Positions 42,016 to 62,555 are shown, numbered from the stretch's first letter. The stretch: DNA of 64,000 nt from an archaeon (GCA_030631995.1 DAOVKB010000001.1:1136-65135); one strand, 5' to 3'. Made by a program: numbers and translations. Notes: generated by a model not told the origin, from the sequence alone.

Positions 42016-44325
42016 TTATACTTCTACATCACTGGAGTGAAATAGAACATCTCTATTTATTGCAGCTTTGAATAATTGCAATAGAAGATCATTTGTTGTT
42101 CTAACAGCAATTGGAACTTCATCAGTAGAAAGAAATGCGAAAATGGCTTCTTGATTACCATCAAGAATTCCACAGTAAACATCTTTCTTTTCATAATGTT
42201 TTAACTTCAAACCTGTGAATCTTTCTGATAAAGGTCTAAGCAGTGTTTGGTGTTTACTTTTATCAAACGATGAGACCAAAGTTATTCGTTGAGCTTTAGT
42301 ATATTGCATCATTTCTTTTAATAACTCTTCATCAACATCAGGAGTAACCAAAAGCAACTCAAATTTAGAACGCATTGCAATATCAGTAACACTTGCTTTA
42401 ATAGCCTCTTCTCCAACAATTATTGATGTGTTATGCTGACCATCGAAGGAATAAGTAGAAGCCGATTTATCTATTTGTCTTAACTCATCTTCTCTAGTAT
42501 TTATGACCTGATAGAATGTCATTGCCTTTTCCATTAATGAATCGAGTTGAGTTACTAAAATTTCATCTACATCCTTGATTACGGCAGCTACTTGTGATAC
42601 TAGAGTATTAATTTGAATTTCTTCCCCTTCAGTAACTTGTTTGATAATTTGATTTTTATTCTCTTCTTTGTAATCCTTCAAGTTCTGTTTTGTATCAGTT
42701 AATTCTTGAGCAAAAGCTTCTTTTTTCGTATTCACTTGCTCATTAAAACTAGTAACAGAAGATTGTAGCTTTTCTTTTAAATCCAAAGCCATTTTTTCAG
42801 AATCTTGTTTTGATTTGTTTAGTTCCTTTATAACATTTGATTGCAACTTTGCTATCACTTGAAATTGATCATTTGCATAGATCTTAACTTCCTTTGTTGC
42901 TTGTTCTTTCATTGCTGTTAATTGCTCTTCTGTTGTTTGTTTCAATTCTTGAGTTACCTGTGAGCATGAATCATACGAAGATCTAGCATATGCTTCAGTT
43001 TGGTTTTGAAGTAAATCCAATAAATCGCTTGGAAGTAAATCGATTTGTTCTAATGTAGCATCTATAAGCTGATTCTTCTTTGTTCTTATTGTAGTTTCAC
43101 CATCAAGTTGGAAATGATCTAGCTGTGATCTGATTTCATCTCTGACTTCATTCAGTGCTAGAACGTGTTGATCGATTAATTGCAGACCACTTTCATTGAG
43201 ATCATTTGCTAAATTTCTAACTGTATCTCTTGCATCTATCAAGGGTGATTCAATTTGCTTCCTTGCCTTTCCTAATTTTAGAACAGCTGAAGAGTCAATG
43301 CTATTAATAGCCTCAGCAATCTTCGAGGACAAGAAATTTGTTTGTCTGTCTATCTGTTCAACACTTCTACGTAATTCTTGGGTTTGTTTTATTTGCTCAG
43401 AGAAAAGATTATTCACGTCTTGTGATAATGCATCAACAATCTTCTTTGATTCATTAATCCAACCCGAATAGGCTTCTTGCCAAACTTTGTTGTAGTTATC
43501 AGAAAAAGATTCTTGGATTTCTGAAATTTTACCTACTAACTCTTTTAGCTCCACATCTATCTCTGGTGCAAGTTTATCTAAGAACTCATGATGATTATCA
43601 GTGTGAGCATCAAGCCCGTTACTAATAATTTTTTTCAGATTGTCGAATGTTTCTTTTGTTTTCCCATCTATTGAGTTTAGTAGCTGCTCACTTTGCTGAT
43701 TTGCTGTGTGATGAAACTGCTTAATGAAAGCGTTAAGCTCTTGAATGTAGGTTTCCAATTGTGTGGAAAATACTAATGGTTGATCCATAATTCTTGTTAA
43801 ATAGCCCTCAACCTCTGCTCGGATTCCTTCAACAAATTCCGAAGCTGAAATCTCTGTTGTATCTGTGAAATCCATATAATTTTGGTATAGAGAATCAACT
43901 ACCTGTTTGATTAGACCACTAACCACGTGGATATCGAAAACAGTTCCTTCACCTGTGAGTTCAAGTGTCCCTCCAAATTTCTCCTTTTTCTCTTTGTATT
44001 CCTCTTTTGCACCTTTAAGAGAGGTAATAACTGCATCTAGAGAGTATAAACCATCCTTTTCAACAACAATGTATTCTTTTAGAAACGGAAGTATTCCAAA
44101 ATAAACAGGAGTTCTCCCTATAGTTTTCTTTAGGAAGCCTAATTCTTCTAAATTCTTAACTGATTGAATGAGTGTAAGAGGATCTAATCCAGTTACGACC
44201 AATAATTCCCCTATTGTAACTTTTCCAAGACCCAATGTAGCAGAATATACTTTGATGTCTGTTTCATTGAATCCTATTCGAGTTAATAATGGAGGAAGAA
44301 TATCAATTTTTGACATTTTATTCAT
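42016..44325 (-). CDS. Large (769 aa) N-terminal wHTH plus long coiled-coil protein with a C-terminal globular domain
   Basis: N-terminal TrmB-like wHTH (DIKVYSATLGLGKVTIGELLVVTGLDPLTLIQSVKNLEELGFLKK). ~450 aa of Q/E/K/S-rich heptad-like sequence. ~150-aa C-terminal domain of unknown fold. Architecture parallels the partial gene at 1..2041. Confidence 0.5.
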   Translation of the reverse strand: MNKMSKIDILPPLLTRIGFNETDIKVYSATLGLGKVTIGELLVVTGLDPLTLIQSVKNLEELGFLKKTIGRTPVYFGILPFLKEYIVVEKDGLYSLDAVITSLKGAKEEYKEKKEKFGGTLELTGEGTVFDIHVVSGLIKQVVDSLYQNYMDFTDTTEISASEFVEGIRAEVEGYLTRIMDQPLVFSTQLETYIQELNAFIKQFHHTANQQSEQLLNSIDGKTKETFDNLKKIISNGLDAHTDNHHEFLDKLAPEIDVELKELVGKISEIQESFSDNYNKVWQEAYSGWINESKKIVDALSQDVNNLFSEQIKQTQELRRSVEQIDRQTNFLSSKIAEAINSIDSSAVLKLGKARKQIESPLIDARDTVRNLANDLNESGLQLIDQHVLALNEVRDEIRSQLDHFQLDGETTIRTKKNQLIDATLEQIDLLPSDLLDLLQNQTEAYARSSYDSCSQVTQELKQTTEEQLTAMKEQATKEVKIYANDQFQVIAKLQSNVIKELNKSKQDSEKMALDLKEKLQSSVTSFNEQVNTKKEAFAQELTDTKQNLKDYKEENKNQIIKQVTEGEEIQINTLVSQVAAVIKDVDEILVTQLDSLMEKAMTFYQVINTREDELRQIDKSASTYSFDGQHNTSIIVGEEAIKASVTDIAMRSKFELLLVTPDVDEELLKEMMQYTKAQRITLVSSFDKSKHQTLLRPLSERFTGLKLKHYEKKDVYCGILDGNQEAIFAFLSTDEVPIAVRTTNDLLLQLFKAAINRDVLFHSSDVEV

Positions 44326-44446
44326 CCTATAATTCTATTCGATATTACTAGTTTATAGTTTCCTACATAAATTTTATTGCATTAATAAGTTAATTTGATT
44401 TGCTTAAAAATCATATACAAAAGGCAATATGAAAATAATGCGAAAA

Positions 44447-45121
44447 TTATTCTTCTGAAACACCAAATTTAGGGCAATATTCTGAAACAAAGCAATTTAA
44501 GCATCGAGGTTTTAGAGCTTTACAGATTTCTCTTCCGTGAGATATTAATAGATGAGTAATTCTTCCCCATTTTTCTGTTGGTATTATTTGCATCAAGTCT
44601 TGCTCAATTTTTATTGGATTTTTATTCTTTGTCCATCCCAAACGATACGAGATGCGTTTGACATGTGTGTCAACAGCTATACCTTCATGAATTTCAAACC
44701 AATCATTCAAAAGTACATTCGCTGTTTTTCTACCTATACCAGGTAATTGAGTTAACTCTTTAATGGAAGTAGGAACTACGGAGTTATGTTCATCGATCAG
44801 TTTTTGAGACATATCCTTGATAAATTTAGCTTTGTTCTTGTAAAGACCAACCTTTGCGATTGCTTTTTCAATTTCATCTAGGGTAGCAGATGCGAGATCT
44901 CGGGGAGAAGGATAGCAAGAGAATAAATCTTTAGTTATTGAATTAACTTGCTTATCTGTGCTTTGAGCACTTAAGATTGTAGCTACCAGTAGCTGATAAG
45001 GAGATGCATAGTTAGCTAAGCCCCCTTTAAACTTAGGATAATGATTTTCCAAAAAATTTAGAATTATCTGATTCTTTCTATTTGATACATTACTCATTAA
45101 AGTTGGTGACTTTGAGCTCAT
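44447..45121 (-). CDS. nth: Endonuclease III (Nth) with [4Fe-4S] cluster
   Basis: HhH-GPD region (LPGIGRKTANVLL). C-terminal Cx6Cx2Cx5C cluster (CKALKPRCLNCFVSEYC). Confidence 0.85.
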   Translation of the reverse strand: MSSKSPTLMSNVSNRKNQIILNFLENHYPKFKGGLANYASPYQLLVATILSAQSTDKQVNSITKDLFSCYPSPRDLASATLDEIEKAIAKVGLYKNKAKFIKDMSQKLIDEHNSVVPTSIKELTQLPGIGRKTANVLLNDWFEIHEGIAVDTHVKRISYRLGWTKNKNPIKIEQDLMQIIPTEKWGRITHLLISHGREICKALKPRCLNCFVSEYCPKFGVSEE

Positions 45122-45338
45122 TTTATACTTTTTGAAGAAAGAGTTCGAATAATAGACAGTTTTGTTTTAGTTCAAGTGTAGTATCTCTAATAAGATTCAT
45201 ATGGTTCTCATTTGATCTACCAGGGATTGATATTTTTGTTTTACCAGAGTAAAATATATGCATGTTCCTTTTGTTCTTTATTTATCTAATGACATAAATA
45301 AAAGCGAGATAGGATTAACACAATATATTTAAAGCAAA

Positions 45339-45956
45339 TTGAACAATGGATTGTATAGAAAAAAGGACAGTGATAGGGGAAAGGCTATGGCTGCAGGACA
45401 AAGAAAAATATTTAAAATTACACTACTGGGAGACGGTGCAGTAGGGAAGACAAGTCTAAGGAAAACATATCTGGGAGAGGGATTTAAAGATGGATATTCC
45501 ATGACAATTGGAGCTGATTTCGCTGTTAAGCGACTACGTATCGATGACCAAGATTTTGTTGCCCAAATTTGGGATCTTGCAGGTCAACAGAGATTCTCAG
45601 CTGTTCGTGAAGTTTATTACCGTGGAACTTCTGGTTGCCTCTTAGTTTTTGATATCTCTCGTCGATCCAGTTTTGAAAACATTCCTTCTTGGATTGCTGA
45701 GCTTCTTAAAAATAACAGTAATCGTGTTGTTCCTATCGTTCTCATTGGTAATAAATCCGATTTAAGGTCTACAGCTAAAGATCCAATCATGCGTGAACAA
45801 GCTGAAGAATATGCTCGCTCTCTTTCTGGTTGGTCTGGTTTTACTGTTCCATATATTGAAACTTCTGCTAAAACTGGAGAAAATGTTGATGAGGCTTTCA
45901 AGACCTTATTGAAAAATATCGTTTTATTCTATGAGAAGCTTTATGCGCAACAATAA
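45339..45956 (+). CDS. Ras-superfamily small GTPase, Rab-like
   Basis: G1 GDGAVGKTS, switch I TIGADF (Rab TIGxDF), G3 WDLAGQQ (WDTAGQE), G4 GNKSDL, G5 ETSAK. The start is probably the internal MAAGQRK. Confidence 0.75.
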   Translation: MNNGLYRKKDSDRGKAMAAGQRKIFKITLLGDGAVGKTSLRKTYLGEGFKDGYSMTIGADFAVKRLRIDDQDFVAQIWDLAGQQRFSAVREVYYRGTSGCLLVFDISRRSSFENIPSWIAELLKNNSNRVVPIVLIGNKSDLRSTAKDPIMREQAEEYARSLSGWSGFTVPYIETSAKTGENVDEAFKTLLKNIVLFYEKLYAQQ

Positions 45957-45971
45957 ACAATTTAGCTTCTT

Positions 45972-46784
45972 TTACTCTTCATTTTTCGCTATCTTTACAT
46001 TCATGGTATCTTCATTAAATGCTGGATGTAAAGAAACAGTTTCATCTTCATTTACTTGTAGTATTTTCATTTGTTCTAGCTCCAGTATATATTTCCTAGT
46101 TTGAGATAATGATACTCCCAGAACAAAAGAAAGTTGTATAGGCGCTATAACTCCCATCCTTCTAAGTAAACTTATAATATTGAATCTTGGATCGGTTGTC
46201 ACTAATCTCTCAAATACTTCTTTTTGGTTTTCCCACAATTTTCTTTCAACATTGATTTCTCCCATTTTATCTTTAAGTTCTTTTTTTTCTGCTTCAATCG
46301 CTACTAGTTGATCTGATAATTCGTAAATTAGTGATTCTCTTTCATCTAAAAGAAGTTTTAACATCTCCTTTTCTCTCTCCCAATCTGGAGTTTCTATGGA
46401 TCCATCAACACTTTTCACATTTGGAGTCTCCATAAACTCTCTCACTTCTTCTGAGAGAGTTCGATCTCTTTGTGATGTAACAGACATCATACTTGAGAGG
46501 AAATTAAATAATCTAAAAAATTCCGATTTCATTTCCGATATTATTTGTTCAGAGGAGTTTTCTAATAACTCGTTAACATACTCAAGCGCGGGTGAAAGCT
46601 CTAGTGTCGAGGTTTTCTTCTTATTGAGAGATTGGAAAATTCCCTTGCTTTCTTTTTGAGTAGATCTAAAATTGTCTTTGATTTCTTTTACTTCTTTAGA
46701 TAGTTTTGATATCTCATCTGCTATTTCTTGAAATTCTTCAGGTTCCTCTGTTCCATTCTCCTCTCTTTCTTCCATTGTTATCAA
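45972..46784 (-). CDS. Acidic coiled-coil protein with C-terminal winged HTH
   Basis: 270 aa. Acidic N-terminus, central coiled coil, C-terminal wHTH-like segment (FNIISLLRRMGVIAPIQLSFVLGVSLSQTRKYILELEQMKIL). Its start abuts the stop of the upstream gene (46784/46785). Confidence 0.4.
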   Translation of the reverse strand: MITMEEREENGTEEPEEFQEIADEISKLSKEVKEIKDNFRSTQKESKGIFQSLNKKKTSTLELSPALEYVNELLENSSEQIISEMKSEFFRLFNFLSSMMSVTSQRDRTLSEEVREFMETPNVKSVDGSIETPDWEREKEMLKLLLDERESLIYELSDQLVAIEAEKKELKDKMGEINVERKLWENQKEVFERLVTTDPRFNIISLLRRMGVIAPIQLSFVLGVSLSQTRKYILELEQMKILQVNEDETVSLHPAFNEDTMNVKIAKNEE

Positions 46785-47621
46785 CTATATTTTTGCTGTT
46801 GATTCTATTTTGAAACCTTCTGCTTCTGAAGGAGATATCTCCAAGTTTTCACTAATGTAAGCTACACCCATCAGTTTTGTTATTGCAAAATTATCCCTGA
46901 TTCTGCTTCCTACTGTAGTTCTAGAGAAGTAGAAAATTCCTTGAGCTGCATTCATGATGATTCTTTCCGCAACTGGATCAAGAATACCTTGTGGTAACAA
47001 GAAGAAATGAATACCTTCTATTTGTTCAAAAGACATAATCGAGTCCTTTAGAAAGGTTATAAGTGCATTAGAATCTTCATCTAATCGATCTTCTTTCATC
47101 CATAAGAGATCATCAAAAACACTGAAGCATTTCTTTTTTTGTGTTTTCTTTACATGGAGCATTCTCTCAATTACTTTTTTTACATATGTTTTGCGTCGAA
47201 CTTCAATCTTACCTAATTTGAGTGCTGAAGCCATAGCTGAACTTGATAAATCAAACATATTCTCGAAATACCAGTTTTTGCCTTCAAAAGGTTTAACATC
47301 CCATGCATATGCTTGAAAAGATCGCAAAACGTGGTTATATGGTCGCCCACTGTGTACATAGAAAATGATATTATCTTCAGATTGTTGAGCCCAATTCAAT
47401 AAAATTCTTTGAACAAACAGAGTAGGAATTACTGTATCAGATGGATAACTAACTAAAATAATGGACCCTTTGGGTAGCCCTCTTCGATTCGATAGCTCCA
47501 TACCAAGCTTTTGATCAAGTGATCGTATTCCAGTTAATATTAGTTCTCCTCTTGAATCTACAGTAGGCTCTTTTTTCCCTATTCTGTCAATTCCTCCTTT
47601 TGAAGCATCTGAATCCATCAA
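46785..47621 (-). CDS. RecA-fold KaiC/RadA-like domain protein with degenerate Walker A (probable pseudo-ATPase)
   Basis: GIRSLDQKLGMELSNRRGLPKGSIILVSYPSDTVIPTLFVQRIL mirrors the KaiC/RadA LDxxLGGGLPxGSxxLIxGxPGTGKTxFxxQFL block. The P-loop glycines and lysine are replaced (YPSDTVIPT). Confidence 0.35.
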   Translation of the reverse strand: MMDSDASKGGIDRIGKKEPTVDSRGELILTGIRSLDQKLGMELSNRRGLPKGSIILVSYPSDTVIPTLFVQRILLNWAQQSEDNIIFYVHSGRPYNHVLRSFQAYAWDVKPFEGKNWYFENMFDLSSSAMASALKLGKIEVRRKTYVKKVIERMLHVKKTQKKKCFSVFDDLLWMKEDRLDEDSNALITFLKDSIMSFEQIEGIHFFLLPQGILDPVAERIIMNAAQGIFYFSRTTVGSRIRDNFAITKLMGVAYISENLEISPSEAEGFKIESTAKI

Positions 47622-47646
47622 ACATTCCTCAATATTAAATGATTCT

Positions 47647-48165
47647 TTAAAATTGTTCTAGTTCCCGCAATGCAAGTTCTAAATCGGAAATAAACTCATC
47701 CTGTACTTTCTTTTCTTCAACTACAACAGGTTGTTGTGCAGGTATTGGTTGAACTTCTGGAGGAGGTACAGGTTTAGCTTCCACATCTAATATATTCCTT
47801 ACTTTTTCTGCGGCAATTTTCATGGTTCTTCTTACCATTCCAAGTGCAACTCCAGTATCAGTAATAAGGCATAATACTGTACTACCACAGCTTGCAACTA
47901 ATATTAACCCCTCTTGAAACTCAGATATGATAATATCTAGCTCTGCTAACCCAACATTTTGACCCTGCTGTTCACTAGCTAAATATACTGCACTAGCGAT
48001 AGCGCCTAAGGCTTCTGTCTCGAATTCATCAAAAGCAAATCGAGAAGAATAAGCTAGTGTTAATCCTGTTTTATCTGCTAATATAACATGATTGATATTA
48101 GCATCACTTGTTATAATTTCATGTAGAATTGTATTTATCTGGTCAGCACCATACAAACAAATCAC
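47647..48165 (-). CDS. Roadblock/LC7 (MglB-like) domain protein with Pro-rich linker and C-terminal helix
   Basis: N-terminal ~120 aa fit the Roadblock pattern (VILADKTGLTLAYS...LGAIASAVYLASEQ...LILVASCGSTVLCLITD); then PVPPPEVQPIPAQQPVV and an amphipathic C-terminal helix. Confidence 0.6.
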   Translation of the reverse strand: MICLYGADQINTILHEIITSDANINHVILADKTGLTLAYSSRFAFDEFETEALGAIASAVYLASEQQGQNVGLAELDIIISEFQEGLILVASCGSTVLCLITDTGVALGMVRRTMKIAAEKVRNILDVEAKPVPPPEVQPIPAQQPVVVEEKKVQDEFISDLELALRELEQF

Positions 48166-48288
48166 CGAGTACGATTTGAAGTCTCTATATGTCTAATTTG
48201 TGCTTACACTATTTAAAGATTTCAACATTGGTATATGCAATTTTTCGATGCAAGGAACTTTTTTAAATTACATCAATAATTTGGATTT

Positions 48289-48975
48289 ATGGTAAAAGTT
48301 ATCTTTCCTGTAATTATCTTAAATTTTAAAAACTATATTCAATCGTTAGGAGAAAATGGTTTAAAGCTAGCGAAGATCGCTGAAAAAGTCGCAAAAGAAA
48401 CTAGTACAGAGATTATTGTTTGTCCTCAAACTACAGATATTAGACTAATATCAAAATCTGTAGAAATACCAGTCTTTTCTCAACATGTTGATGCTAATGA
48501 ACCCGGTAGCTTCACAGGGAACAACTTGATTGAAGCTGTTATCGAAAGCGGAGCTTCTGGAACGCTTGTTAATCATTCAGAGCATAGATTAACCTTGGAC
48601 AAAATTGAAGGAATAATTAAGCGTGCAAAGAATCTAGATTTCATGACTTGTGTTTGCTCAAACAATCTTCAAGTTAGTCGAGCTGTAGCAGCGTTATCTC
48701 CAGAAGCTTGTGCAATGGAACCTCCAGAATTAATTGGAAGTGGTGTATCTGTTACAACAAAACCAGAATTAATACAAAAAACAATAGCAGCTATACTTGA
48801 GACGAATCCAAGTGTAAAACCTCTGGTTGGTGCGGGTGTTTCAACTGCAGAAGATGTTTCAGAAGCTATAAAACTTGGTTCGAAAGGAGTATTGTTAGCT
48901 TCTGGATTTGTTAAATCAAAAGAACCGCAGAAAGTTTTATTTGAAATGGCAAACGCTCTTTTGAGAAATAATTAG
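48289..48975 (+). CDS. tpiA: Triosephosphate isomerase (archaeal short form)
   Basis: ~228 aa; NHSEHRL catalytic His region, EPPELIGSG (Glu) and C-terminal phosphate-binding GAGVST/LASGF loops. Confidence 0.8.
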   Translation: MVKVIFPVIILNFKNYIQSLGENGLKLAKIAEKVAKETSTEIIVCPQTTDIRLISKSVEIPVFSQHVDANEPGSFTGNNLIEAVIESGASGTLVNHSEHRLTLDKIEGIIKRAKNLDFMTCVCSNNLQVSRAVAALSPEACAMEPPELIGSGVSVTTKPELIQKTIAAILETNPSVKPLVGAGVSTAEDVSEAIKLGSKGVLLASGFVKSKEPQKVLFEMANALLRNN

Positions 48976-49000
48976 AGGAAGAGATTTATTAAAGAAAATT

Positions 49001-49534
49001 CTACTCAAGTTTCTTCCACATATTTTTTTCTGCCTGTTTAATTTGAGTCAAGATCCCAGCTTCTTCCATCTTCTCCAAGGTTTTGATGAATCCTTCCTTC
49101 GATAAAGGAGGATTTCCTTGTTTCAATGCTGCAAATTGACATGAAGCAAAAATAGCATCTTCGTACATGAATTTTGCAGATCCAAAAGATTCTAAAATTA
49201 GGTCTTGGTTAGGTATATCTTGATCTATCGCTTTTGCTTTAGGTGCAGCTTGTGGCTCTGCTTTAGGTGCAGCTTGTGACTCTGCTTTAGGTGCAGCTTG
49301 TGACTCTGCTTTGGGAGCAACTTTTTCTTCCTTCCCTGTTTTTGAAATTATTTGTTCCGCTATCAAATCACTTAAGCTTTTTCCCTCAGTTTTTTCTCCA
49401 AATCCATATAATTCAGCTAACCAATATGAAGCATGTGAAATAAAAACTTCTACAGATTCAAAATTACCTTCGTCAACTAATTCTTGGAGATAGTCTAAAA
49501 GACCTTCTGGTATGTTTATTTCAAGAGTTTTCAT
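49001..49534 (-). CDS. Hypothetical protein with (AAPKAESQ)n octapeptide tandem repeats
   Basis: Structured N-terminal ~50 aa, central repeats APKAESQAAPKAESQAAPKAEPQAAPKA, C-terminal ~70-aa domain. Confidence 0.4.
   Translation of the reverse strand: MKTLEINIPEGLLDYLQELVDEGNFESVEVFISHASYWLAELYGFGEKTEGKSLSDLIAEQIISKTGKEEKVAPKAESQAAPKAESQAAPKAEPQAAPKAKAIDQDIPNQDLILESFGSAKFMYEDAIFASCQFAALKQGNPPLSKEGFIKTLEKMEEAGILTQIKQAEKNMWKKLE
49236..49313. repeat. 24-bp direct tandem repeat x3.3 (coding; AAPKAESQ repeats)
   Basis: gctttaggtgcagcttgtg[g/a]ctct repeated head-to-tail three times plus a partial copy. Confidence 0.8.
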
Positions 49535-54212: not shown

Positions 54213-55349
54213 ATGAGTAAGAGATATAAAATTGCAGTACTCCCTGGAGATGGGATAGGAAAAGATGTTACAGATGCAGCAATGAAGGTTCTTGACGCTG
54301 TAGGATTTAGTGAAATAGTAGAATATACTTGGGGAGATATAGGTTGGGAATTCTGGAAAACAGAAGGTAATCCATTACCTGATAGAACGATTGGGTTGTT
54401 AAAACGATCAGATTGTTGTCTATTTTCTGCTATTACTTCAAAACCCAAAGAAGAAGCTCAAAAAGAATTAGCTCCGGAATTACAAGGAAAAGGATTAGTT
54501 TATTCCAGTCCAATAGTAAAACTAAGACAATTGTTCGATTTGTATGTCAATTTACGTCCATGTAAAGCTTATCCTGGTAATCCTCTAAATTTTAGAGATG
54601 ACTTAGATCTTGTAGTTTTTCGTGAGAATACTGAAGGTCTATATGTTGGTATAGAATTCCATCCAGTTCCTGAAGATGTGATGAAAACTTTAGTTGATAA
54701 TCATCCAAAAGCTGCTCGTTTTGCAGAAACAAACCTAGACGATATTGCTATTTCCACACGAATTTTCACCAGAAAAGGTGTAAGAAGAATTCTTAAGGCT
54801 AGTATGGATTATGCAAAAGAGTTTGATTATCCTACTGTGACTGTAGTTGAAAAACCCAATGTAATCAGAGAAACAAGCGGTTTGATGATACGTGAAGCTC
54901 GAAAGCTAATCAATGAATACGAAGGAAAAGAACTTTGGGAAACAAATATAGATGCAATGTGTATGTGGTTGGTTAAAAATCCACAAAATTATGGTGTTTT
55001 AGTTGCCTCCAATATGTTTGGTGATATTGTTTCTGATTTATGTGCTCAACTAGTTGGTGGTCTTGGTTTTGCTTGTTCAGGTAATATTGGAGACAATTTT
55101 GCAGTATTTGAACCCAGCCATGGCTCCGCTCCAAAATATGTAGGTATGAATAAAGTCAATCCTATTGCTCAAATTTTATCAGCAAAGATGATGCTCGATT
55201 GGCTTGGAGAAAAAGAGATGGCCACCAAAGTTGAAGATGCAATAATAGTTGTTATTGCAGAAGGAAAGGTTAGAACATATGATATGGGAGGATCTTCCAC
55301 AACTTCAGAGATGGTAGAGGAAATCTGTGAGAAACTGTTAAACACTTAG
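54213..55349 (+). CDS. Beta-decarboxylating dehydrogenase (3-isopropylmalate / isocitrate / homoisocitrate dehydrogenase family)
   Basis: IAVLPGDGIGKDV N-terminal motif, LYVNLRP, NMFGDIVSD substrate/metal motifs. 378 aa with an internal ~45-aa insertion. Confidence 0.75.
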   Translation: MSKRYKIAVLPGDGIGKDVTDAAMKVLDAVGFSEIVEYTWGDIGWEFWKTEGNPLPDRTIGLLKRSDCCLFSAITSKPKEEAQKELAPELQGKGLVYSSPIVKLRQLFDLYVNLRPCKAYPGNPLNFRDDLDLVVFRENTEGLYVGIEFHPVPEDVMKTLVDNHPKAARFAETNLDDIAISTRIFTRKGVRRILKASMDYAKEFDYPTVTVVEKPNVIRETSGLMIREARKLINEYEGKELWETNIDAMCMWLVKNPQNYGVLVASNMFGDIVSDLCAQLVGGLGFACSGNIGDNFAVFEPSHGSAPKYVGMNKVNPIAQILSAKMMLDWLGEKEMATKVEDAIIVVIAEGKVRTYDMGGSSTTSEMVEEICEKLLNT

Positions 55350-55433
55350 CCAGAGAATAATAAACAATTGCAGAATTGCTTGAATGTAAAAAGGAGAAAT
55401 CATATAGAGATAGCCTTATTACCATCTTTCTAA

Positions 55434-56717
55434 TTGGTGAAATTGAGCGAAATGAAGGCCTTCACATTTATAGAGAAGATAGTTAAATCCCATGCTAATG
55501 TGGCAGAAAAGGAGATTTATCCGGGTAATATTATATGGGTCAATCTTGATCTCGTAACTGCAAGAGATTACGCAGGACCTCAAGTTATAGATCTATTTCA
55601 AGAAAATTACCTAGATGCTCAAACTTTCGATAATGAAAAAATCATTTTTACCCCTGACTGTTATCCCTATGGTAATGACCCCAAGCATGCAATAGATCAA
55701 GAAAAAATAAGAGTATTCGCTAAAAAACACAATATTCGTGTCACCGATTTAGGATCGGGTATTGGTTCTCATCTTCTGTTTCGTAGAGGATTTTCAAAAC
55801 CTGGTGACATAGCTTTTGGAGCTGATAGTCATTATAACATTCTAGGGGCCTTAGGAATTCTTGGGCAGGGAGCAGGAGATGTAATGCTTGCTTTTGCAAT
55901 GAAAACAGGTAAATCTTGGATTAAGATTCCAGAAACGGTAAAAATTGAGTTAAAAGGAGAATACAATTGGCCAACAACTTCAAAAGATTTAGCGTTGTAT
56001 ATCCTAAAACAACTGCATGATTATGGCATCACAGGGCAAGCTGTAGAGTTTTATGGAGATATAATCTCAAAACTAAGCATCGAGGATCGTATAACTCTGT
56101 GCTCATTAATCACTGAAGCTTCAGGATCGATAGGGTTTATTCCTCCCGACGAAGTAACGGCAGAATTCTACAGACAACAAAATATTGAGATAGAATTATT
56201 ATCAGCAGATGAAAATGCAAATTATGTTTCTGAACTTACAATTGATATTCAAGATTTAGGACTATATATTGCATGCCCTCCTCATCCACATAATGTAAAG
56301 CCAATTGAAGAGGTTTTAGGAACGCCAATTAATTCAATAGTAATAGGATCTTGCACAAATGGAACGGCAGCAGATATTCGGGAAGCAGCAAAAATTTTAA
56401 AGAATCAAAAAATTAGTCCTGAAGTACGATTAGGAATAGTTCCAGCAACTCGCGAAGATTTTGTTTTTGCACATAAAGAAAACACCATGACAGCAATTCT
56501 CGATGCGGGAGGTAATTTCTTTGGAGCTGGTTGCTCAACATGTGCCAAAGGACAATATGGTTTAACGGGAGGAGAAACAGCAGTTACTATGACAACAGGT
56601 AACCGTAATACACAGGGAAAAATCGGTCCTGCTGATGTTTATCTAGCTAGTCCTATCGTGGCAGCATCAACAGCAATTGAAGGAAAAATTGCTCTACCTA
56701 AAAAAAGAGATGATTAA
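55434..56717 (+). CDS. Aconitase-family dehydratase large subunit (LeuC/HacA-like)
   Basis: Three cluster cysteines in SCTNG / GCSTCAKGQ-type context; 427 aa as in archaeal LeuC/HacA. Confidence 0.8.
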   Translation: MVKLSEMKAFTFIEKIVKSHANVAEKEIYPGNIIWVNLDLVTARDYAGPQVIDLFQENYLDAQTFDNEKIIFTPDCYPYGNDPKHAIDQEKIRVFAKKHNIRVTDLGSGIGSHLLFRRGFSKPGDIAFGADSHYNILGALGILGQGAGDVMLAFAMKTGKSWIKIPETVKIELKGEYNWPTTSKDLALYILKQLHDYGITGQAVEFYGDIISKLSIEDRITLCSLITEASGSIGFIPPDEVTAEFYRQQNIEIELLSADENANYVSELTIDIQDLGLYIACPPHPHNVKPIEEVLGTPINSIVIGSCTNGTAADIREAAKILKNQKISPEVRLGIVPATREDFVFAHKENTMTAILDAGGNFFGAGCSTCAKGQYGLTGGETAVTMTTGNRNTQGKIGPADVYLASPIVAASTAIEGKIALPKKRDD

Positions 56718-57224
56718 ATGGGTGTAGAAAAAATAAGTGGAAAGGCAAAATTAGTAAAAGTTGATGATATTGATACAGATCAAATTTTCCATCAATCCCT
56801 ATTAACTATACACGATCCACAAGAAATCAAGCCACATATTTTTGGTAATTTGGTAGGTTATGAGAATTTTGCGAAGGAGAATCATGAAAACAAGATTCTA
56901 GTTGTTGGGAAAAATTTTGGAAAGGGCTCTACTAGACAACAGGCTGTAACTGGTTTTCTTGCACATAAAATCAAAGCCATCATTGGTGAGTCTTTTGGTC
57001 CGATTTACTATAGTAATGCTGTAAATTCAGGATTGTTACTTGTTGAAGTTCCTGGTATTTTCGAATTCTTAATTGATGATTTTGATGTTTTAGAAATTGA
57101 TGTTGAGAAATCTACAATCTTGAATGTTGACAAGGGAAGCGAGATAAAATGCATTCCAATTCCAAAACCTGCTTTGGATATTATGGAGGCAGGGGGGTTA
57201 TTGAAATTAGGGGACAAGATGTGA
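56718..57224 (+). CDS. Aconitase-family dehydratase small subunit (LeuD/HacB-like)
   Basis: 168 aa; GKNFGKGSTRQQA (GxNFGCGSSRE-type) swivel-domain motif; starts 1 nt after the large-subunit stop. Confidence 0.8.
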   Translation: MGVEKISGKAKLVKVDDIDTDQIFHQSLLTIHDPQEIKPHIFGNLVGYENFAKENHENKILVVGKNFGKGSTRQQAVTGFLAHKIKAIIGESFGPIYYSNAVNSGLLLVEVPGIFEFLIDDFDVLEIDVEKSTILNVDKGSEIKCIPIPKPALDIMEAGGLLKLGDKM

Positions 57225-57233
57225 GGGTATGAA

Positions 57234-59087
57234 ATGACTGGCAAGACTTATTCAGAAAAATTGTTTTCAATCAAAACTAAACAATCTGTAAGTGCGGGAG
57301 ACATAGTTTTTGCAGAACCGGACCTAATCTTATCCCACGATAATTCTGCATCTATTTACAAAACATTCCAAAAAATGGGTGGTACAAAAATCAAATATCC
57401 TAATCGTTTGGTTATTGTTCTAGATCATGATTCCCCTCCAACTAGTGTTACTATTGCTAACGATCATAAGACCATTAGAGAACTAGTAAAGAATCAAAAC
57501 ATTACAAATTATTATGATGAAGGGGTGGGGATATGTCATCAACTTATGTCAAATCACGCACTACCAAATATGCTCATTGTAGGTTCCGATTCCCATACTT
57601 GTACAAGTGGAGCTTTTACAGCATTTTCAGCAGGAATTGACAGAACTGAAACTGCAGGATTATGGTTAACAGGTAAAACATGGTTCAGAGTACCTGAAAC
57701 AATAAAAATTGAATTAGAAGGAGAACTTCCACCTGGTGTTTACGCAAAAGATATTGCTTTATACATCATGAATGCTATTGGTGCCGCCGGAGCATTATAC
57801 AAAAGTATAGAATTCCATGGAGAAGGAGTAAAAAACCTAAGTATCTCTGAACGCATGACACTAGCTAATTTAGCTTCAGAAATGGGAGCTAAAACAGCAA
57901 TTTTTCCACCTGATGTAATGCTAGTTGATTGGTTAAAAAAGAAACACAGTGACAAGGACATTATTGCAGAAGATGATCTATTTTGGTCAGATGATAATGC
58001 TATTTTTAGTCAAAATTTTACTGTTACTCTTGGCAAGTTAGAACCTCTTATTGCGATTCCTCATCAAGTAGATAATGCTCAATTTATTAGTGATGTTGGT
58101 GATATATTCATTCATCAAGCTTTTCTTGGTACTTGTACAAACGCTCGATTAGATGATTTGAATATTGCAGCATCAGTATTGAAGGGTAAAAGAGTAAAAG
58201 AGGGGGTTGTCTTCCTCGTAGCACCAGCTTCTCAGGAAATTTATCTTAAAGCTATGGAGAATGACATTATTCAAACACTAGTTAAAGCAGGAGCTACAAT
58301 TCTTTCATGCAGCTGTGGTCCATGTTTAGGGAAGGGACAAGGAATTCCTGCAGATGGATGGAACATAATATCAACTGCAAATAGAAATTTTCTGGGAAGA
58401 ATGGGTAACAAAAATTCTTCAATATATTTAGCATCTCCTGCTACTGTAGCAGCATCTGCAATTGCAGGTAAAATAGTGGATCCTAGAGAATACCTTTCAA
58501 TAAAAATCATAGATACAGAAAAGCAAATAGAGCTCCAACCAAGAGCTTTGGAAGCAAAAATCCTTGTGATTACATCTGAAGATGATAGGAATAACCAAAA
58601 TATTTGGAATTATAGTGACATAAACGATTTTAATACAGATCAAATGTTTGCTGGAGGTTTAACCTATGACATAAAATCATCGGATGGCGAGAAAATAGTA
58701 CCTCATTTGTTCAAGGGTCTAGATGAGACTTTTGCGATGAGAGTTAAAAAGGGAGATATTGTTATTGGAGGAGAAAATTTTGGATGTGGTTCTTCAAGAG
58801 AACATCCTGCAGTAGGATTAGCAACCGCAGGTGTAAAAGCTGTCATTGTTAAATCAGTCTCAAGAATTTTCTATAGATCTGCTATTAATCAGGGATTACC
58901 AATCATTGTACATCCAGAACTTGTAGACAATTTTGATGAAAATGAATCAATATCTATCGATTTGGAAAATGGAAGAATAACTAATGGAGAACGTGTATTC
59001 CTCTTCCCCAAACTACCAGAAGAACTTCTTGATATTTTTAATGCAGGAGGTTTAATCAAACACTATCAAAAACAACATTCAGAATAG
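57234..59087 (+). CDS. Fused aconitase-family dehydratase (LeuC-like large domain plus LeuD-like swivel domain in one 617-aa chain)
   Basis: N-terminal ~420 aa with CTNARL / SCSCGPCLGKGQG cluster motifs; C-terminal GENFGCGSSREHPAVGL small-subunit motif. Confidence 0.7.
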   Translation: MTGKTYSEKLFSIKTKQSVSAGDIVFAEPDLILSHDNSASIYKTFQKMGGTKIKYPNRLVIVLDHDSPPTSVTIANDHKTIRELVKNQNITNYYDEGVGICHQLMSNHALPNMLIVGSDSHTCTSGAFTAFSAGIDRTETAGLWLTGKTWFRVPETIKIELEGELPPGVYAKDIALYIMNAIGAAGALYKSIEFHGEGVKNLSISERMTLANLASEMGAKTAIFPPDVMLVDWLKKKHSDKDIIAEDDLFWSDDNAIFSQNFTVTLGKLEPLIAIPHQVDNAQFISDVGDIFIHQAFLGTCTNARLDDLNIAASVLKGKRVKEGVVFLVAPASQEIYLKAMENDIIQTLVKAGATILSCSCGPCLGKGQGIPADGWNIISTANRNFLGRMGNKNSSIYLASPATVAASAIAGKIVDPREYLSIKIIDTEKQIELQPRALEAKILVITSEDDRNNQNIWNYSDINDFNTDQMFAGGLTYDIKSSDGEKIVPHLFKGLDETFAMRVKKGDIVIGGENFGCGSSREHPAVGLATAGVKAVIVKSVSRIFYRSAINQGLPIIVHPELVDNFDENESISIDLENGRITNGERVFLFPKLPEELLDIFNAGGLIKHYQKQHSE

Positions 59088-59097
59088 AGGGAAAAAA

Positions 59098-60405
59098 ATG
59101 AGATTATATGAATATGAAGCTAAACAGATTTTTGAGAAATTTGGATTAATAATTCCAAAGCAAATTGCAATAGTTAAAGATATTGAGCAGTTAAATGATC
59201 TTTCAATATCCTTTCCAATAATGATCAAAGCGATGGTATTGATAGGTGGTCGAGGTAAAGTGGGAGGGATTAAAAAGGCAAAAAATATTGATGAGACAAA
59301 GACGATTATTAGTGAAATGCTCAAACTCTCAATTCATGGTTACTCAATAGAAAAAATACTGCTAGAAGAAGCTGTCAATATCTCAAGTGAGATTTATTTA
59401 TCAATTACTACTGATCCAGCAACCTTTGATATTGTAATAGTAGCTTCAGCAAGCGGTGGAGTGGACATAGAAGAAGTTGCTAGACAAAATCCTGAAAAAA
59501 TTTGGAAAAGGACAATTCTGGAAAATGTAAAAGAATTACCAGGTGCTATAGCTGATGAAGCAGTAGAATTTTTGGTGAAGAGTGAATCAAATTTAATAGG
59601 ATCGGAGAATCAACTAAAAGTAGCAATTCAATCTCTTTATTCAGCTTTTCAAACTGCGGAAGCGAAAATATGTGAGATAAATCCTCTAATTGTTGCAGAG
59701 GATGAGAGAATTATTGCTGCAGATGCAAAAGTAGTACTTGATGACAATAGTTTGTATAGACAAGAGCCTTTATTGAAATCTATTGGAATAGATCCAAGAA
59801 GTAAAAGACATGATATTTCAGAACAAACATTTTTTGAGGATAAGGCTTACAGAATAGGCTTTCCATATTTAGATTTACTTGATGAGCCTGAGGAATTTGT
59901 AAAAGAAGAAGATAAACTTTATGTTGGTTTGGTTCCTGGAGGAGCAGGTTATGGTATTTTTTCTATTGATGAGGTTGTTAATGTAGGGAACCGCTATTTT
60001 AACGGTAAAGCTGTGCCAATAAATTTCATGGATAGTGGAGGTGGTCCATCATTCAGCAAAGTAGCAGATATGTTTCATTTACTTATGGATCATCCTGCCA
60101 CCGATTTAATAATTACAAGTCGATTTGGAGGAATTTCCAGCTGTGACATATTTATTCGTGGTTTAATAATGTCATTAAGAGATCGATACACAAAAAGGAA
60201 ACGGATGATTCCCGTCTTCGGTAGAATGGTTGGAACTGATTTAGCTGCAGCTCGTGAGTATTTTGAAAAAGCTAAAAGGGAGACACCAGAACCATTAAAG
60301 GATTTACACATTGTTGTGGGGAACCAGAAAATCATGGCAGATGTCATAAAAGATGGCATAGAATATGGTTTCAAAATAAAGAGTCAAGAGGGAGTAACTA
60401 GGTGA
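59098..60405 (+). CDS. aclB: ATP-citrate lyase beta subunit (SucC-like ATP-grasp; AclB) or closely related citryl-CoA synthetase large subunit
   Basis: MRLYEYEAKQIF ATP-grasp N-terminus like SucC. 435 aa (longer than SCS-beta). Immediately followed, with a 4-nt overlap, by a CoA-ligase-alpha plus citrate-synthase-like fusion. Confidence 0.55.
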   Translation: MRLYEYEAKQIFEKFGLIIPKQIAIVKDIEQLNDLSISFPIMIKAMVLIGGRGKVGGIKKAKNIDETKTIISEMLKLSIHGYSIEKILLEEAVNISSEIYLSITTDPATFDIVIVASASGGVDIEEVARQNPEKIWKRTILENVKELPGAIADEAVEFLVKSESNLIGSENQLKVAIQSLYSAFQTAEAKICEINPLIVAEDERIIAADAKVVLDDNSLYRQEPLLKSIGIDPRSKRHDISEQTFFEDKAYRIGFPYLDLLDEPEEFVKEEDKLYVGLVPGGAGYGIFSIDEVVNVGNRYFNGKAVPINFMDSGGGPSFSKVADMFHLLMDHPATDLIITSRFGGISSCDIFIRGLIMSLRDRYTKRKRMIPVFGRMVGTDLAAAREYFEKAKRETPEPLKDLHIVVGNQKIMADVIKDGIEYGFKIKSQEGVTR

Positions 60406-62555
60406 GAACTATGGCAAAAGGAATGCTAAATTCAGATCAAGGTTTACTTTATTATTTAATTAAAGAAGTCAGACCAGAGCTAGCAAATCAAATCACTAAA
60501 ACAAAAACAATTGAAACCATGATTGTAGGTCTCGGAAGACAAGGAACTAGACATGCACAACTCATGATGGAATATGGAACTAATGTTACCTGTGGTGTAG
60601 CTCCTGGTAGAGGGGGAACAAAAGTTCATGAAACTATACCTGTTTATAATTCAGCACAAGAAGCAATTAATAATCACTCAGATATTGCAATCGCTAGCAT
60701 ATGGAGACATTATTCCACTGCTAAAGATGCAACAATTGAGGTGATAAAGTCAGGGATTCCTATTGTTGTTCTAATCTCTGAATTTATTCCATTGAAAGAT
60801 GTGAGAGATATTCTAGTTGAAGCTAGAAAGCACAAAACGATTCTATTTGGTGGAAACACACCAGGAATAATTTTCCCACCAGAAGGAATAAAAGTTGGCA
60901 TGCTTCCAGATATTTTTCAAGCACAAATTATTGGAGAAGAAGTGGGAGCAAAAGGTGTAACAATTTTATCTCGAAGCGGGGCAATTCTCTATCATATGTC
61001 AGATGCATTAGCTAGTGCAGGTATTGCACAAAATGGTGTATTAGGGATAGGAGGAGATGGTGCAATAGGGGCCAGATTTGTAGATCTTGTTTCGTTGGTA
61101 ATGAAATATGAGGAGACAGATTTAGTAGTAGTTGCAGGAGAAATAGGAGGGATGCAAGAAGAATTGCTTGCACAAGACATGATAGCTCACCCTGAGAAAT
61201 ATCCCAAACCATTAGTTGCATTAATTTCAGGAGCTAATGCTCCAGAAGGGAAAACAATGGGACATGCAGGAGCAGTAATATCTCCAGGCCAGAATTATGG
61301 TACTTTTATTTCAAAAAAAGAGATATTAGAAAAAGCAGGAGCTACAGTAGTTAATCATCAAAGAGATTTAATCGAAGCTGTAAAATCCAAGTTAAATAAA
61401 ACCTACTTTGAAATTGAAGATTATTATAATAGAATGCGTAAAAAATGGGATGCTAAATCACCTGAACCCACCTGGGGAACATTAATTACTAATGTTATGC
61501 CCAATAATTTAATTATCCGAGGATATCCTTTGCAAGAGATTATCTCAAGGAAGGGACTACTTGAGACAGCTTATTTACTAAATAATGGTGAATTTCCTGT
61601 TGAGCAAATTGCAGAGCTAGAGAATCTTGCATTAAAAGCTCTAAAGGACGAATTACATACTGGTTATAACATCCTCAATGAAACAGATGTTGCAAAAGTA
61701 ATAGGTACTTTTTTGCTACTTGATGATAATCTATCAAGCTTTGCGCAAGAAGTTAATGATGGTTCCAAAGTAGTAGCATACGCACTTGGAAGGGTATTGA
61801 AATATCTTACCAAATTCTTCAATAACGACGATAAAATCATTAATTTACTGAAAGAGGATGTTTCATTTTCAGAATTAATTTACTTAGGTTTAGTAGGTGA
61901 AATACCTTCTGATGTGTCGAAAATTAAATTGCTCGAAGCGATAATCACAGCTTGTGTAGATCATGGAGTCACACCACCTTCTGCACAAGCAACTCGTATT
62001 TTAGCATCGACACGTGCAAATTATGAAGTGGCCCTTTCAGCTGGTACCCAAGCTATTACAGATATTCATGGTGGTGCAGGTCAAAAAGCAGCAGAATTTT
62101 TCTTATCAGTTGTTAAGAGTGCTAAAGAAAACAGTAAAGATCTTAATGAAACCACTTTTGAATCAATCCGAGAGACAATCAAAGCTGGAAGAAGGATTGA
62201 AGGATTAGGGCATCGCATCCATACACAAGACCCTAGAAGAGATGTCCTTTGGGAACTTTCTGAAAAAGCTGGTTATGCAAAAGAATGTGTTTCTGTTTCA
62301 AAATTGGTTACTGATGCGTTCTATAGAGTTAGAGGAATGAATTTACCTATCAATGTGGATGGGGTTATTGGCGCGATTATAGCTGACATGGGCATCGATC
62401 CTAAACTAGCCAAGGCGGTCTTTGTCTTTGGAAGAATTGCAGGATTAACAGCACATTATTATGAAGAAATCAATACTCAATCCCAGATGAGAAGACTTGC
62501 TTTCGATAGAGCGGTATATAAAGGACCTTCCATTCGTGAAGTTCTTGAGGATTAA
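60402..62555 (+). CDS. aclA: ATP-citrate lyase alpha subunit (SucD-like CoA-binding/phosphohistidine domain fused to citrate-synthase-like citryl-CoA lyase domain; AclA)
   Basis: CoA-binding Rossmann region (IVGLGRQGTRHAQ), phosphohistidine loop MGHAGAVIS, C-terminal citrate-synthase-family motifs (DIHGGAGQ; GLGHRIHTQDPRR). 717 aa. Confidence 0.6.
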   Translation: MRTMAKGMLNSDQGLLYYLIKEVRPELANQITKTKTIETMIVGLGRQGTRHAQLMMEYGTNVTCGVAPGRGGTKVHETIPVYNSAQEAINNHSDIAIASIWRHYSTAKDATIEVIKSGIPIVVLISEFIPLKDVRDILVEARKHKTILFGGNTPGIIFPPEGIKVGMLPDIFQAQIIGEEVGAKGVTILSRSGAILYHMSDALASAGIAQNGVLGIGGDGAIGARFVDLVSLVMKYEETDLVVVAGEIGGMQEELLAQDMIAHPEKYPKPLVALISGANAPEGKTMGHAGAVISPGQNYGTFISKKEILEKAGATVVNHQRDLIEAVKSKLNKTYFEIEDYYNRMRKKWDAKSPEPTWGTLITNVMPNNLIIRGYPLQEIISRKGLLETAYLLNNGEFPVEQIAELENLALKALKDELHTGYNILNETDVAKVIGTFLLLDDNLSSFAQEVNDGSKVVAYALGRVLKYLTKFFNNDDKIINLLKEDVSFSELIYLGLVGEIPSDVSKIKLLEAIITACVDHGVTPPSAQATRILASTRANYEVALSAGTQAITDIHGGAGQKAAEFFLSVVKSAKENSKDLNETTFESIRETIKAGRRIEGLGHRIHTQDPRRDVLWELSEKAGYAKECVSVSKLVTDAFYRVRGMNLPINVDGVIGAIIADMGIDPKLAKAVFVFGRIAGLTAHYYEEINTQSQMRRLAFDRAVYKGPSIREVLED

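Follow-up and report, generated by a model that had tools for sequence, protein, structure and literature searches.

A Heimdallarchaeaceae operon of Roadblock, inactivated KaiC-fold, and coiled-coil genes beside a Rab-like GTPase gene

The Roadblock, MglB, and LAMTOR proteins characterized so far act mainly as regulators of small GTPases. In Myxococcus xanthus MglB, an acidic C-terminal helix docks in an MglA pocket remote from the active site and promotes nucleotide exchange (PMC6785124), and in the Roadblock–GTPase operon of the actinobacterial conservon a helix-turn-helix (HTH)-fold protein, CvnC/MfpC, is the guanine nucleotide exchange factor (GEF) for the conservon GTPase (PMC11343762). 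Among Asgard archaea, an operon joins genes for a LAMTOR1-like Roadblock protein, a Rab-like GTPase, and a DENN protein, most such genes lying outside conserved neighborhoods (Liu et al., bioRxiv 10.1101/2020.10.19.343400), and Asgard GTPase and Roadblock/longin genes are generally not in operons (Tran et al., MK-D1, PMC10933270). KaiC-like proteins, inactivated ones included, have been proposed as archaeal signaling hubs (Makarova, Galperin & Koonin 2017, as presented in PMC5847659), and in Haloferax KaiC-like regulators work with transcription factors (CirA/CsmR). Here, we analyze a 64,000-nucleotide stretch of archaeal DNA (GCA_030631995.1, DAOVKB010000001.1:1136-65135; hereafter the window), in which positions 45,339 to 48,165 carry a three-gene operon for a Roadblock protein, an inactivated KaiC/RecA-fold protein that we call iKaiC, and an acidic coiled-coil protein, convergent with the gene of a Rab-like small GTPase.

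Roadblock proteins as NTPase regulators and KaiC-like domains, also inactivated ones, in archaeal signaling are established already. An operon joining Roadblock, dead-KaiC, and coiled-coil genes, or indeed any Roadblock partner for a KaiC-like protein, is not described in the literature that we searched, which did not cover the text of Makarova et al. 2017. The reading that we favor, tentatively and with a little less than even confidence, is that the operon encodes a signaling or regulatory complex specific to the Heimdall group, for which the adjacent GTPase is the leading candidate switch; within it, the folds and motif losses, the operon structure, and the conservation and joint movement of the trio are shown, and we infer complex formation, the scaffold role of iKaiC, an action like that of a GTPase-activating protein (GAP) or GEF, and the identity of the GTPase.

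The three-gene operon and its conservation

The window, with ~33% G+C, comes from a Heimdallarchaeaceae genome, and its close homologs are all in Heimdallarchaeota metagenome-assembled genomes. A first-pass annotation had placed four open reading frames (ORFs) here and named their families; our ORF listing agrees with the coordinates, and Pfam, AlphaFold2 (AF2)/Foldseek, and ortholog comparisons uphold all four names. The genes are seen again in ~60 loci of other assemblies, so they are not a product of chance. These loci, each with a family member and cited below by L number, were gathered from one genome per GTDB species, Joint Genome Institute (JGI) metagenomes, and exact-protein look-ups.

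The trio runs along the minus strand in the order Roadblock, iKaiC, coiled-coil, with gaps of 25 nt and then 0–9 nt. Stop and start had been read as abutting at 46784/46785; the tight packing stands, but the coiled-coil gene probably starts at ATG 46775, as judged from the orthologs, which gives a 9-nt gap instead of abutment. The likely start of iKaiC is ATG 47618, ahead of which lies the Shine-Dalgarno sequence GAGG, and the Roadblock gene may start at TTG 48156. Some 45 nt ahead of the Roadblock gene, in the intergenic region divergent with the triosephosphate isomerase (TIM) gene, a B recognition element (BRE)/TATA-like element, TTGAAATCTTTAAATA (48210..48225, minus strand), is the putative promoter of the three-gene operon. 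It is unique in the window and conserved across the aligned orthologous upstream regions, and it also stands ahead of the Roadblock gene in L069, despite a different upstream gene there. A bacterial promoter and terminator scan was uninformative for an archaeon.

The gene order in Heimdallarchaeaceae is p177> TIM< Roadblock> iKaiC> coiled-coil> GTPase< EndoIII> CC769> (p177 and CC769, proteins of 177 and 769 aa; EndoIII, endonuclease III), and the order and spacing of the trio are kept in ~45 loci of this family. They are kept as well in L001, L036, L046, L050–L052, and L054, where the proteins are 43–52% identical to those of the window. Around them, the flanks change: RLI/ABCE1 takes the place of TIM before the trio in the Kariarchaeaceae-like LC_2 (L046) together with L050–L052, and also in L001 and L036, while in L054 RLI lies downstream of the trio. 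L069 has all three genes flipped together with respect to the GTPase gene. A rough analysis of rate covariation (six genes in 23 taxa, with non-negative least-squares branch lengths fitted for each gene on a common neighbor-joining tree) yielded r = 0.72–0.82 for the Roadblock–coiled-coil pair and 0.51–0.62 for iKaiC–coiled-coil; control pairs with TIM or EndoIII gave −0.08 to 0.53, and housekeeping controls 0.05–0.53. Based on the tight collinear spacing, the order conserved between changed flanks, the inversion as a block, and the Roadblock–coiled-coil covariation, the three genes very probably form a functional unit.

Protein families of the trio

The Roadblock/LC7 (MglB/LAMTOR2-like) protein (172 aa; 47647..48165, minus strand) scores 32.9 bits on Pfam Robl_LC7 PF03259 (cut-off 23; E = 5.3e-8), a domain found in all listed homologs bar the two shortest, and it has a weak Pfam match to MAPKK1_Int/LAMTOR3. 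Its AF2 model, built with 26 homologs, has the canonical alpha-beta-beta-alpha-beta-beta-beta-alpha fold over residues 3–128 (helix 3–20, strands 24–31 and 36–41, helix 50–66, strands 78–83, 86–92, and 96–102, and helix 108–128). Residues 129–153 form a low-confidence or disordered Pro-rich linker whose length and composition vary among homologs, and a terminal helix spans residues 154–170. Foldseek matches the model with probability 1.0 to the Asgard (MK-D1) Roadblock3 (9jue), LAMTOR2, MglB of Thermus and Myxococcus (1j3w, 3t1s, 6izw), and Thor-RB, and further to a Streptomyces Roadblock protein. The product of 47647..48165 therefore adopts the Roadblock fold by topology and by structural match, and the Roadblock domain, Pro-rich linker, and C-terminal helix described in the first-pass annotation are all visible in the model.

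The acidic tail of this protein (residues 154–172, DEFISDLELALRELEQF; pI 4.05, with 4.3 for the whole protein) follows the consensus (D/E)EF(I/L)SDL(E/Q)xAL(R/K)ELExF, which stays essentially unchanged even in homologs of 46% identity, those of Kariarchaeaceae included; the C-terminal helix is kept in 25 of the 26 homologs.

iKaiC (277–278 aa; 46785..47621, minus strand) was assigned by alignments and its AF2 model. The window protein matches nothing in Pfam at E ≤ 1, 12 of 20 orthologs match KaiC PF06745 (best 2.5e-9), and a PDB profile search gave PH0284 at only 0.014. The AF2 model (predicted local distance difference test score, pLDDT, 76.6) is matched by Foldseek, at E ~1e-11 and probability 1.0, to KaiC CI/CII, FlaH (4yds), PH0284 (2dr3), and SSO2452 (2w0m). 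We compared motifs in an alignment of the orthologs with a KaiC-like ATPase of the same clade whose motifs are intact (L008). Where that protein has the Walker A sequence GPAGAGKST, iKaiC has SYPSDTVIPT, in which the Gly, Lys, and Thr positions are all occupied by other residues; the acidic pair after strand 2 (FDE) is lost, being HSG or HSS in iKaiC; and KMRG, the K-[LM]-R-G motif, is KLMG, without the Arg. Of these motifs, only the Walker B Asp (VIDS in L008, FDD in iKaiC) is kept, and it is invariant. We take the acidic pair to be the catalytic Glu pair, and the Arg of K-[LM]-R-G to be the Arg finger, of KaiC. These substitutions make it highly probable that iKaiC is a catalytically dead pseudo-ATPase. 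The Walker A had earlier been called degenerate; aligned with the L008 KaiC, the whole P-loop is gone, and iKaiC is thus no ordinary KaiC paralog. As many as 63 columns are invariant over 20 iKaiC orthologs, and by the evidence of the alignment the protein is under strong purifying selection despite the loss of its hydrolysis residues. A Ser-rich loop at residues ~124–146 (SSSAMASALKLGKIEVRRKTY; SSH.ASSSKIGKIDIKRKTY in distant orthologs) is highly conserved and is disordered in the model (pLDDT <50); it may serve as a site of binding or phosphorylation.

When 1.84 billion cluster representatives were searched exhaustively with a profile, the iKaiC family came back as two full-length clusters only, and on this survey the family is restricted to Heimdall-group archaea. 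Well below these clusters in score come distant relatives in the KaiC family that have preserved the glycine-rich loop but carry Phe, Tyr, or Ile at the position of the Walker A Lys; given this partial motif loss, loss of function appears graded, with the Heimdall family as its extreme. Judged by their neighborhoods, the distant Lys-less relatives are for the most part encoded alone, and no Roadblock gene accompanies them. The wider group of single-domain PF06745 proteins without the Walker A Lys (GEPGSGF and similar) comprises P0057–P0078 together with L007 and L041–L043; an amidohydrolase gene follows two of these relatives, and a type IV pilus locus lies beside one. Stand-alone iKaiC members or distant relatives are also seen by replication genes, namely those for RFC small subunit and RPA (L008, 5001–6801), Orc1/Cdc6 (L038, 306–2528), and an RFC-lid AAA protein (L042, 5001–7512), a proximity that may be coincidence within housekeeping regions.

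The third protein (267–270 aa; 45972..46784, minus strand) is an acidic coiled-coil protein with a probable C-terminal winged HTH (wHTH) at residues ~195–260, assigned from the alignment and HTH_24 matches. Its matches of coiled-coil type are to myosin rod, Vipp1, and SMC, and its conserved C-terminal domain of ~65 residues reads TDPR[FY]xII..L....I...QLSFVLG.S..Q...Y..EL. HTH_24 is found in 8 of 12 family members, below threshold (best 1.2e-3); further sub-threshold matches of the C-terminus are to HVO_A0114, MarR, and TFIIE_alpha, with eS25 at 6e-4 in the PDB search, and a paralog of the protein matches HVO_A0114 at 7.4e-6. Thus, of the first-pass description of an acidic coiled coil ending in a DNA-binding wHTH, the acidic character, the coiled coil, and the family are borne out, the wHTH is probable, and DNA binding is doubtful: the winged-helix region has a pI of 5.3 and is not basic, so that DNA binding is no safe assumption. 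Homology to CvnC/DUF742 was considered and rejected, as no DUF742 match was listed, even at E ≤ 10 with the isolated C-terminal domain. The coiled-coil gene is the fastest-evolving of the cluster (tree length 4.64 vs. 0.91 for Roadblock). In L008 (8735–10602), the gene immediately ahead of that for a KaiC-like ATPase with the intact Walker A GPAGAGKST encodes a coiled-coil/winged-helix paralog (DUF7491 coiled coil plus HVO_A0114), which suggests that pairs of coiled-coil-wHTH and KaiC proteins are a recurrent theme.

The neighboring GTPase and competing explanations

The Rab-like small GTPase (189 aa; 45387..45956, plus strand) is convergent with the operon. The mechanical ORF begins at 45339; the orthologs all start with M-[AG]-x-[GS]-QRKIFK, and this shared N terminus identifies ATG 45387 (MAAGQRK) as the true start. 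The protein matches Pfam Ras PF00071 at 2.3e-49 (167.5 bits; cut-off 21.6), and its translation contains the G1–G5 motifs GDGAVGKT, TIGADF, WDLAGQQ, NKSD, and SAK, the last four of which had led the first-pass annotation, correctly, to a Ras-superfamily GTPase with Rab-type switch motifs. The nearest solved structure is the Thorarchaeota Rab 7ezb (9.4e-40), followed in the match ranking by Rab7/Ypt7, Rab11, Rab2, and Rab1. The C terminus, ...LFYEKLYAQQ, has no cysteine and with it no prenylation motif of Rab proper, for which reason we call the protein Rab-like rather than Rab. A TATA-like element near 45324–45335 and a GGGG Shine-Dalgarno sequence serve the gene, the upstream element being conserved among orthologs. 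The stops of the GTPase and coiled-coil genes, which converge, are 15 nt apart (45954–45974), and barring very tight termination the two transcripts probably overlap at their 3′ ends. The GTPase evolves ~10 times more slowly than TIM: orthologs across Heimdallarchaeaceae are 89–100% identical, the total tree length over 23 Heimdallarchaeaceae is 0.24 vs. 2.54 for TIM and 3.29 for EndoIII, and identity is 92–93% where TIM has ~62%.

In every Heimdallarchaeaceae locus with enough flank, an ortholog of this GTPase lies within 1.5 kb of the trio, in one of four arrangements. The common one is convergent with the trio; two closed Heimdallarchaeum genomes, and L064 as far as its contig reaches, have EndoIII< GTPase>; in L035, where the coiled-coil gene is absent, the GTPase gene comes directly after iKaiC; and in L069 it stands immediately upstream of the Roadblock gene and co-directional with it. 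We also count for the link a contrast in charge between the Roadblock (pI 4.3) and coiled-coil (4.7) proteins on the one hand and the GTPase (9.4) and iKaiC (8.8) on the other.

In the complex that we favor, the trio proteins would assemble on a non-catalytic KaiC-fold scaffold or adaptor, iKaiC, which might form a ring, as KaiC-family proteins do. The Roadblock dimer would face an NTPase; analogy with MglB, LAMTOR, and CvnB points to binding at the switch face of a small GTPase, and the tethered acidic C-terminal helix of the Roadblock protein would provide a second, allosteric contact. The coiled-coil/winged-helix protein would be an output or co-regulator, possibly one that binds DNA; alternatively, it might act on the GTPase in the manner of the HTH-fold CvnC/MfpC of the conservon, since the existence of an HTH-fold GEF (PMC11343762) means that an HTH-fold protein in such an operon need not bind DNA. 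In Heimdallarchaeaceae, the slowly evolving adjacent Rab-like GTPase would be the lead candidate for the switch under Roadblock control. Reasoning by analogy, we put the prospect that the Roadblock subunit acts on some small GTPase at evenly balanced; that its target is the neighboring Rab-like GTPase is a more doubtful proposal. A full archaeal counterpart of the conservon G-protein system, in which a dead-KaiC ring would replace the kinase-like part, the Roadblock dimer would be the GAP and would use an MglB-like tethered helix, the coiled-coil protein an exchange factor or effector, and the Rab-like GTPase the switch, seems unlikely.

Several observations weigh against the complex that we favor, and most of them concern the GTPase. 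The trio itself is not obligate: L008, L038, and L053 have the iKaiC gene by itself, in L045 it is 2.5 kb from the Roadblock gene and on the opposite strand, and the coiled-coil gene is absent from L035, L006, and L067. The GTPase gene is on the strand opposite the trio, with its own promoter and Shine-Dalgarno sequence; TIM, endonuclease III, and the 769-aa protein are equally syntenic in the Heimdallarchaeaceae block; and local inversions or deletions would suffice to produce all four GTPase arrangements. Outside Heimdallarchaeaceae, no ortholog of the GTPase was found near the trio in the loci examined. In LC_2 (L046), the only small GTPase gene near the trio, two genes downstream, encodes a paralog of 38% identity, and the LC_2 relative L050 has no small GTPase near the trio. 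Independent GTPase–Roadblock adjacency in other lineages was sought and rejected, the sampled 64% (LC_2) and 76% relatives of the GTPase lying in unrelated contexts. The rate covariation of the GTPase with the trio (r = 0.3–0.59) is no better than that of controls. As to an output role for the coiled-coil protein, the winged-helix family matches are all below threshold, the region is not basic, and a shared operator in the two promoters was rejected, as the aligned orthologous upstream regions show only TATA-like elements. The four-gene neighborhood of the first-pass annotation is therefore conserved as regards the trio, in Heimdallarchaeaceae and Kariarchaeaceae-like lineages, while adjacency of the GTPase is a feature of Heimdallarchaeaceae only. 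Likewise, of its proposed GTPase regulatory or signaling module, the three-gene operon survives and membership of the Rab-like GTPase is no more than a plausible hypothesis, given the family-limited synteny and the lack of special covariation.

The main rival explanation dispenses with the GTPase. The operon would then be a KaiC-based hub with the Roadblock protein as input or sensor, the dead KaiC as adaptor, and the coiled-coil/winged-helix protein as transcription factor, and the GTPase would be a mere syntenic neighbor, as TIM and endonuclease III are. This accords with the retention of the trio without a GTPase ortholog in Kariarchaeaceae-like and other lineages, with the unrelated contexts of the two sampled GTPase relatives, and with the absence of GTPase-specific covariation. 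The L008 paralog (HVO_A0114 plus DUF7491), which adjoins an intact KaiC, points the same way, as do the recognized archaeal theme of KaiC-like proteins paired with transcription regulators (PMC5847659; CirA/CsmR) and the use of Roadblock-like domains as output domains of archaeal response regulators (NitrOD3). The winged-helix region, however, is not basic, and the Roadblock protein carries an acidic C-terminal helix in the style of MglB. Such a role would also depart from the main one of characterized Roadblock, MglB, and LAMTOR proteins, which is to act on small GTPases, and it leaves aside a GTPase ortholog that stays within 1.5 kb through four rearrangements, including the co-directional upstream position in L069. 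On balance, we consider a GTPase-independent hub somewhat unlikely.

The remaining explanations are far less probable. iKaiC could be a RadA/Rad55-type recombination mediator without ATPase activity, part of a DNA repair or replication cluster with endonuclease III and a DNA-binding coiled-coil protein. One ortholog is named a "RAD55 family ATPase" by NCBI, endonuclease III adjoins in Heimdallarchaeaceae, stand-alone members lie beside genes for RFC small subunit and RPA (L008) and Orc1/Cdc6 (L038), and non-catalytic RecA-fold paralogs that aid recombinases are well known. The structural neighbors of iKaiC, however, are KaiC, FlaH, and PH0284 and not RadA/Rad51; endonuclease III is adjacent in one family only; the neighbors in all lineages are general housekeeping genes (RLI, TIM, ribosomal proteins); and a Roadblock partner has no precedent in recombination, all of which makes this role improbable. 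Slightly more improbable than the mediator is the absence of any shared function, with four unrelated neighbors in a slowly rearranging housekeeping region. The whole block of p177, TIM, trio, GTPase, endonuclease III, and 769-aa protein is indeed syntenic in the family, and RLI and TIM accompany the trio in other lineages too; but trio order, strand, and near-zero spacing persist at ~45% identity while the flanks change, the trio has been inverted as a unit, and Roadblock and coiled-coil rates covary above controls. Least probable of all is control of a type IV pilus or archaellum-like surface structure with iKaiC as a FlaH/ArlH-like component. FlaH is among the top structural matches, the distant Lys-less relative P0057 has as its neighbor a pilus locus that encodes T2SSE, T2SSF, and prepilin peptidase, Roadblock proteins (arCOG02603) as well as KaiC-family ATPases have been reported from archaeal pilus loci (PMC4858521), and MglA/MglB control pilus polarity in Myxococcus. 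We pursued this link and rejected it: there are no pilus or archaellum genes in the 64-kb window, nor in the gene calls examined at the other trio loci, and FlaH binds ATP whereas iKaiC has no P-loop.

The other genes of the window are largely of housekeeping type. They encode RFC large subunit, exosome subunits, SBDS, RLI, IleRS, TFB, S3Ae, an Obg-like GTPase, endonuclease V, ribosomal proteins S24e and S27ae, Spt4, RpoE, eIF2-gamma, isocitrate dehydrogenase, aconitases, and ATP-citrate lyase; scans of the 64 kb showed no pilus, archaellum, kinase, DENN, or longin genes. The 769-aa protein (42016–44325, minus strand) combines a TrmB-like N-terminal winged helix with long apolipoprotein-like helical repeats and stays close to the trio in two settings, following endonuclease III in Heimdallarchaeaceae and preceding RLI in Kariarchaeaceae-like contigs (counterparts in L046, 1507–3519; L050, 610–2622; and L051, 234–2249). 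The 177-aa protein (49001–49534, minus strand), conserved beside TIM, contains ~3.5 tandem copies of an Ala/Pro/Lys-rich repeat, APKAESQA, between two small helical domains and has no family match. Farther away, a 218-aa protein (14413–15069, minus strand) has a UQ_con (ubiquitin-conjugating enzyme E2) domain (8.2e-10), an Asgard "eukaryotic signature" gene, and the interval 54213–62555 (plus strand) encodes in a row isocitrate dehydrogenase, two aconitase-family enzymes, and two ATP-citrate-lyase-like subunits with ATP-grasp_2, CoA ligase, and citrate synthase domains, a run consistent with a reverse tricarboxylic acid cycle segment.

Significance and comparison with known systems

Asgard genomes encode dozens of small GTPases and of Roadblock/longin proteins, and genome layout cannot match the GTPases to their regulators. 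This locus offers a concrete, testable pairing in Heimdallarchaeia of a Roadblock protein that has an MglB-style tail with a very slowly evolving Rab-like GTPase. iKaiC is in addition a clear case of a KaiC fold kept as a non-catalytic subunit, which bears on the idea of KaiC-like proteins as general hubs. If the conservon-like reading were true, regulators could for the first time be assigned to an Asgard Rab-like GTPase, in the archaea closest to eukaryotes; should the GTPase link fail, the locus would still hold a regulatory operon particular to its lineage.

Among described systems, the Asgard operon of LAMTOR1-like, Rab-like, and DENN genes resembles ours as an Asgard neighborhood that joins a Roadblock-superfamily protein with a Rab-like GTPase. 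Unlike it, the proteins encoded from 42016 to 49534 include no DENN or longin match (Pfam), the Roadblock gene is accompanied by dead-KaiC and coiled-coil/winged-helix genes, and the GTPase gene is not co-directional. With Ragulator–Rag, in which LAMTOR2/3 heterodimers scaffold Rag GTPases, the locus shares the idea of a Roadblock platform for a GTPase, LAMTOR2 being among the best structural matches and MAPKK1_Int/LAMTOR3 a weak Pfam match; in contrast, the window locus has neither a Rag-type GTPase with a C-terminal Roadblock domain nor a LAMTOR1-like tether, nor any sign of association with a membrane.

The resemblance to MglA/MglB of Myxococcus and Thermus lies in a Roadblock fold that matches MglB, in the succession of domain, linker, and acidic helix seen in M. 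xanthus MglB, and in the small GTPase next door. However, the window GTPase is Rab-like, with the catalytic Gln in DxxGQ, and not of MglA type, and its gene is convergent with the operon rather than co-transcribed; the Roadblock protein scores only 22.5 bits on the NCBIfam MglB equivalog model (NF052242), short of the cut-off of 200; and MglAB systems are without the dead-KaiC and coiled-coil operon partners found here. The actinobacterial conservon (CvnA-D; MfpB-E) has a similar set of parts, a Roadblock GAP, the HTH-fold CvnC/MfpC, a small GTPase, and a fourth protein of ATP-binding fold. That fourth part differs, being a histidine-kinase-like membrane protein in the conservon but a soluble dead KaiC fold in our operon; moreover, the Pfam matches of our cluster and its flanking genes include no kinase, no DUF742 match is listed for the coiled-coil protein, the window GTPase is of a different family and on the opposite strand, and the host is an archaeon.

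Finally, iKaiC shares its single-domain KaiC fold with the archaeal KaiC-like hubs, ArlH/FlaH, and CirA. Inactivated KaiC domains and the pairing of KaiC with winged-helix proteins are already recognized among these, as far as the 2017 proposal is presented in later work. Set against them, iKaiC has degenerated to an extreme degree, with nothing left of the P-loop, the acidic pair, or the Arg, and the family is confined to the Heimdall group.

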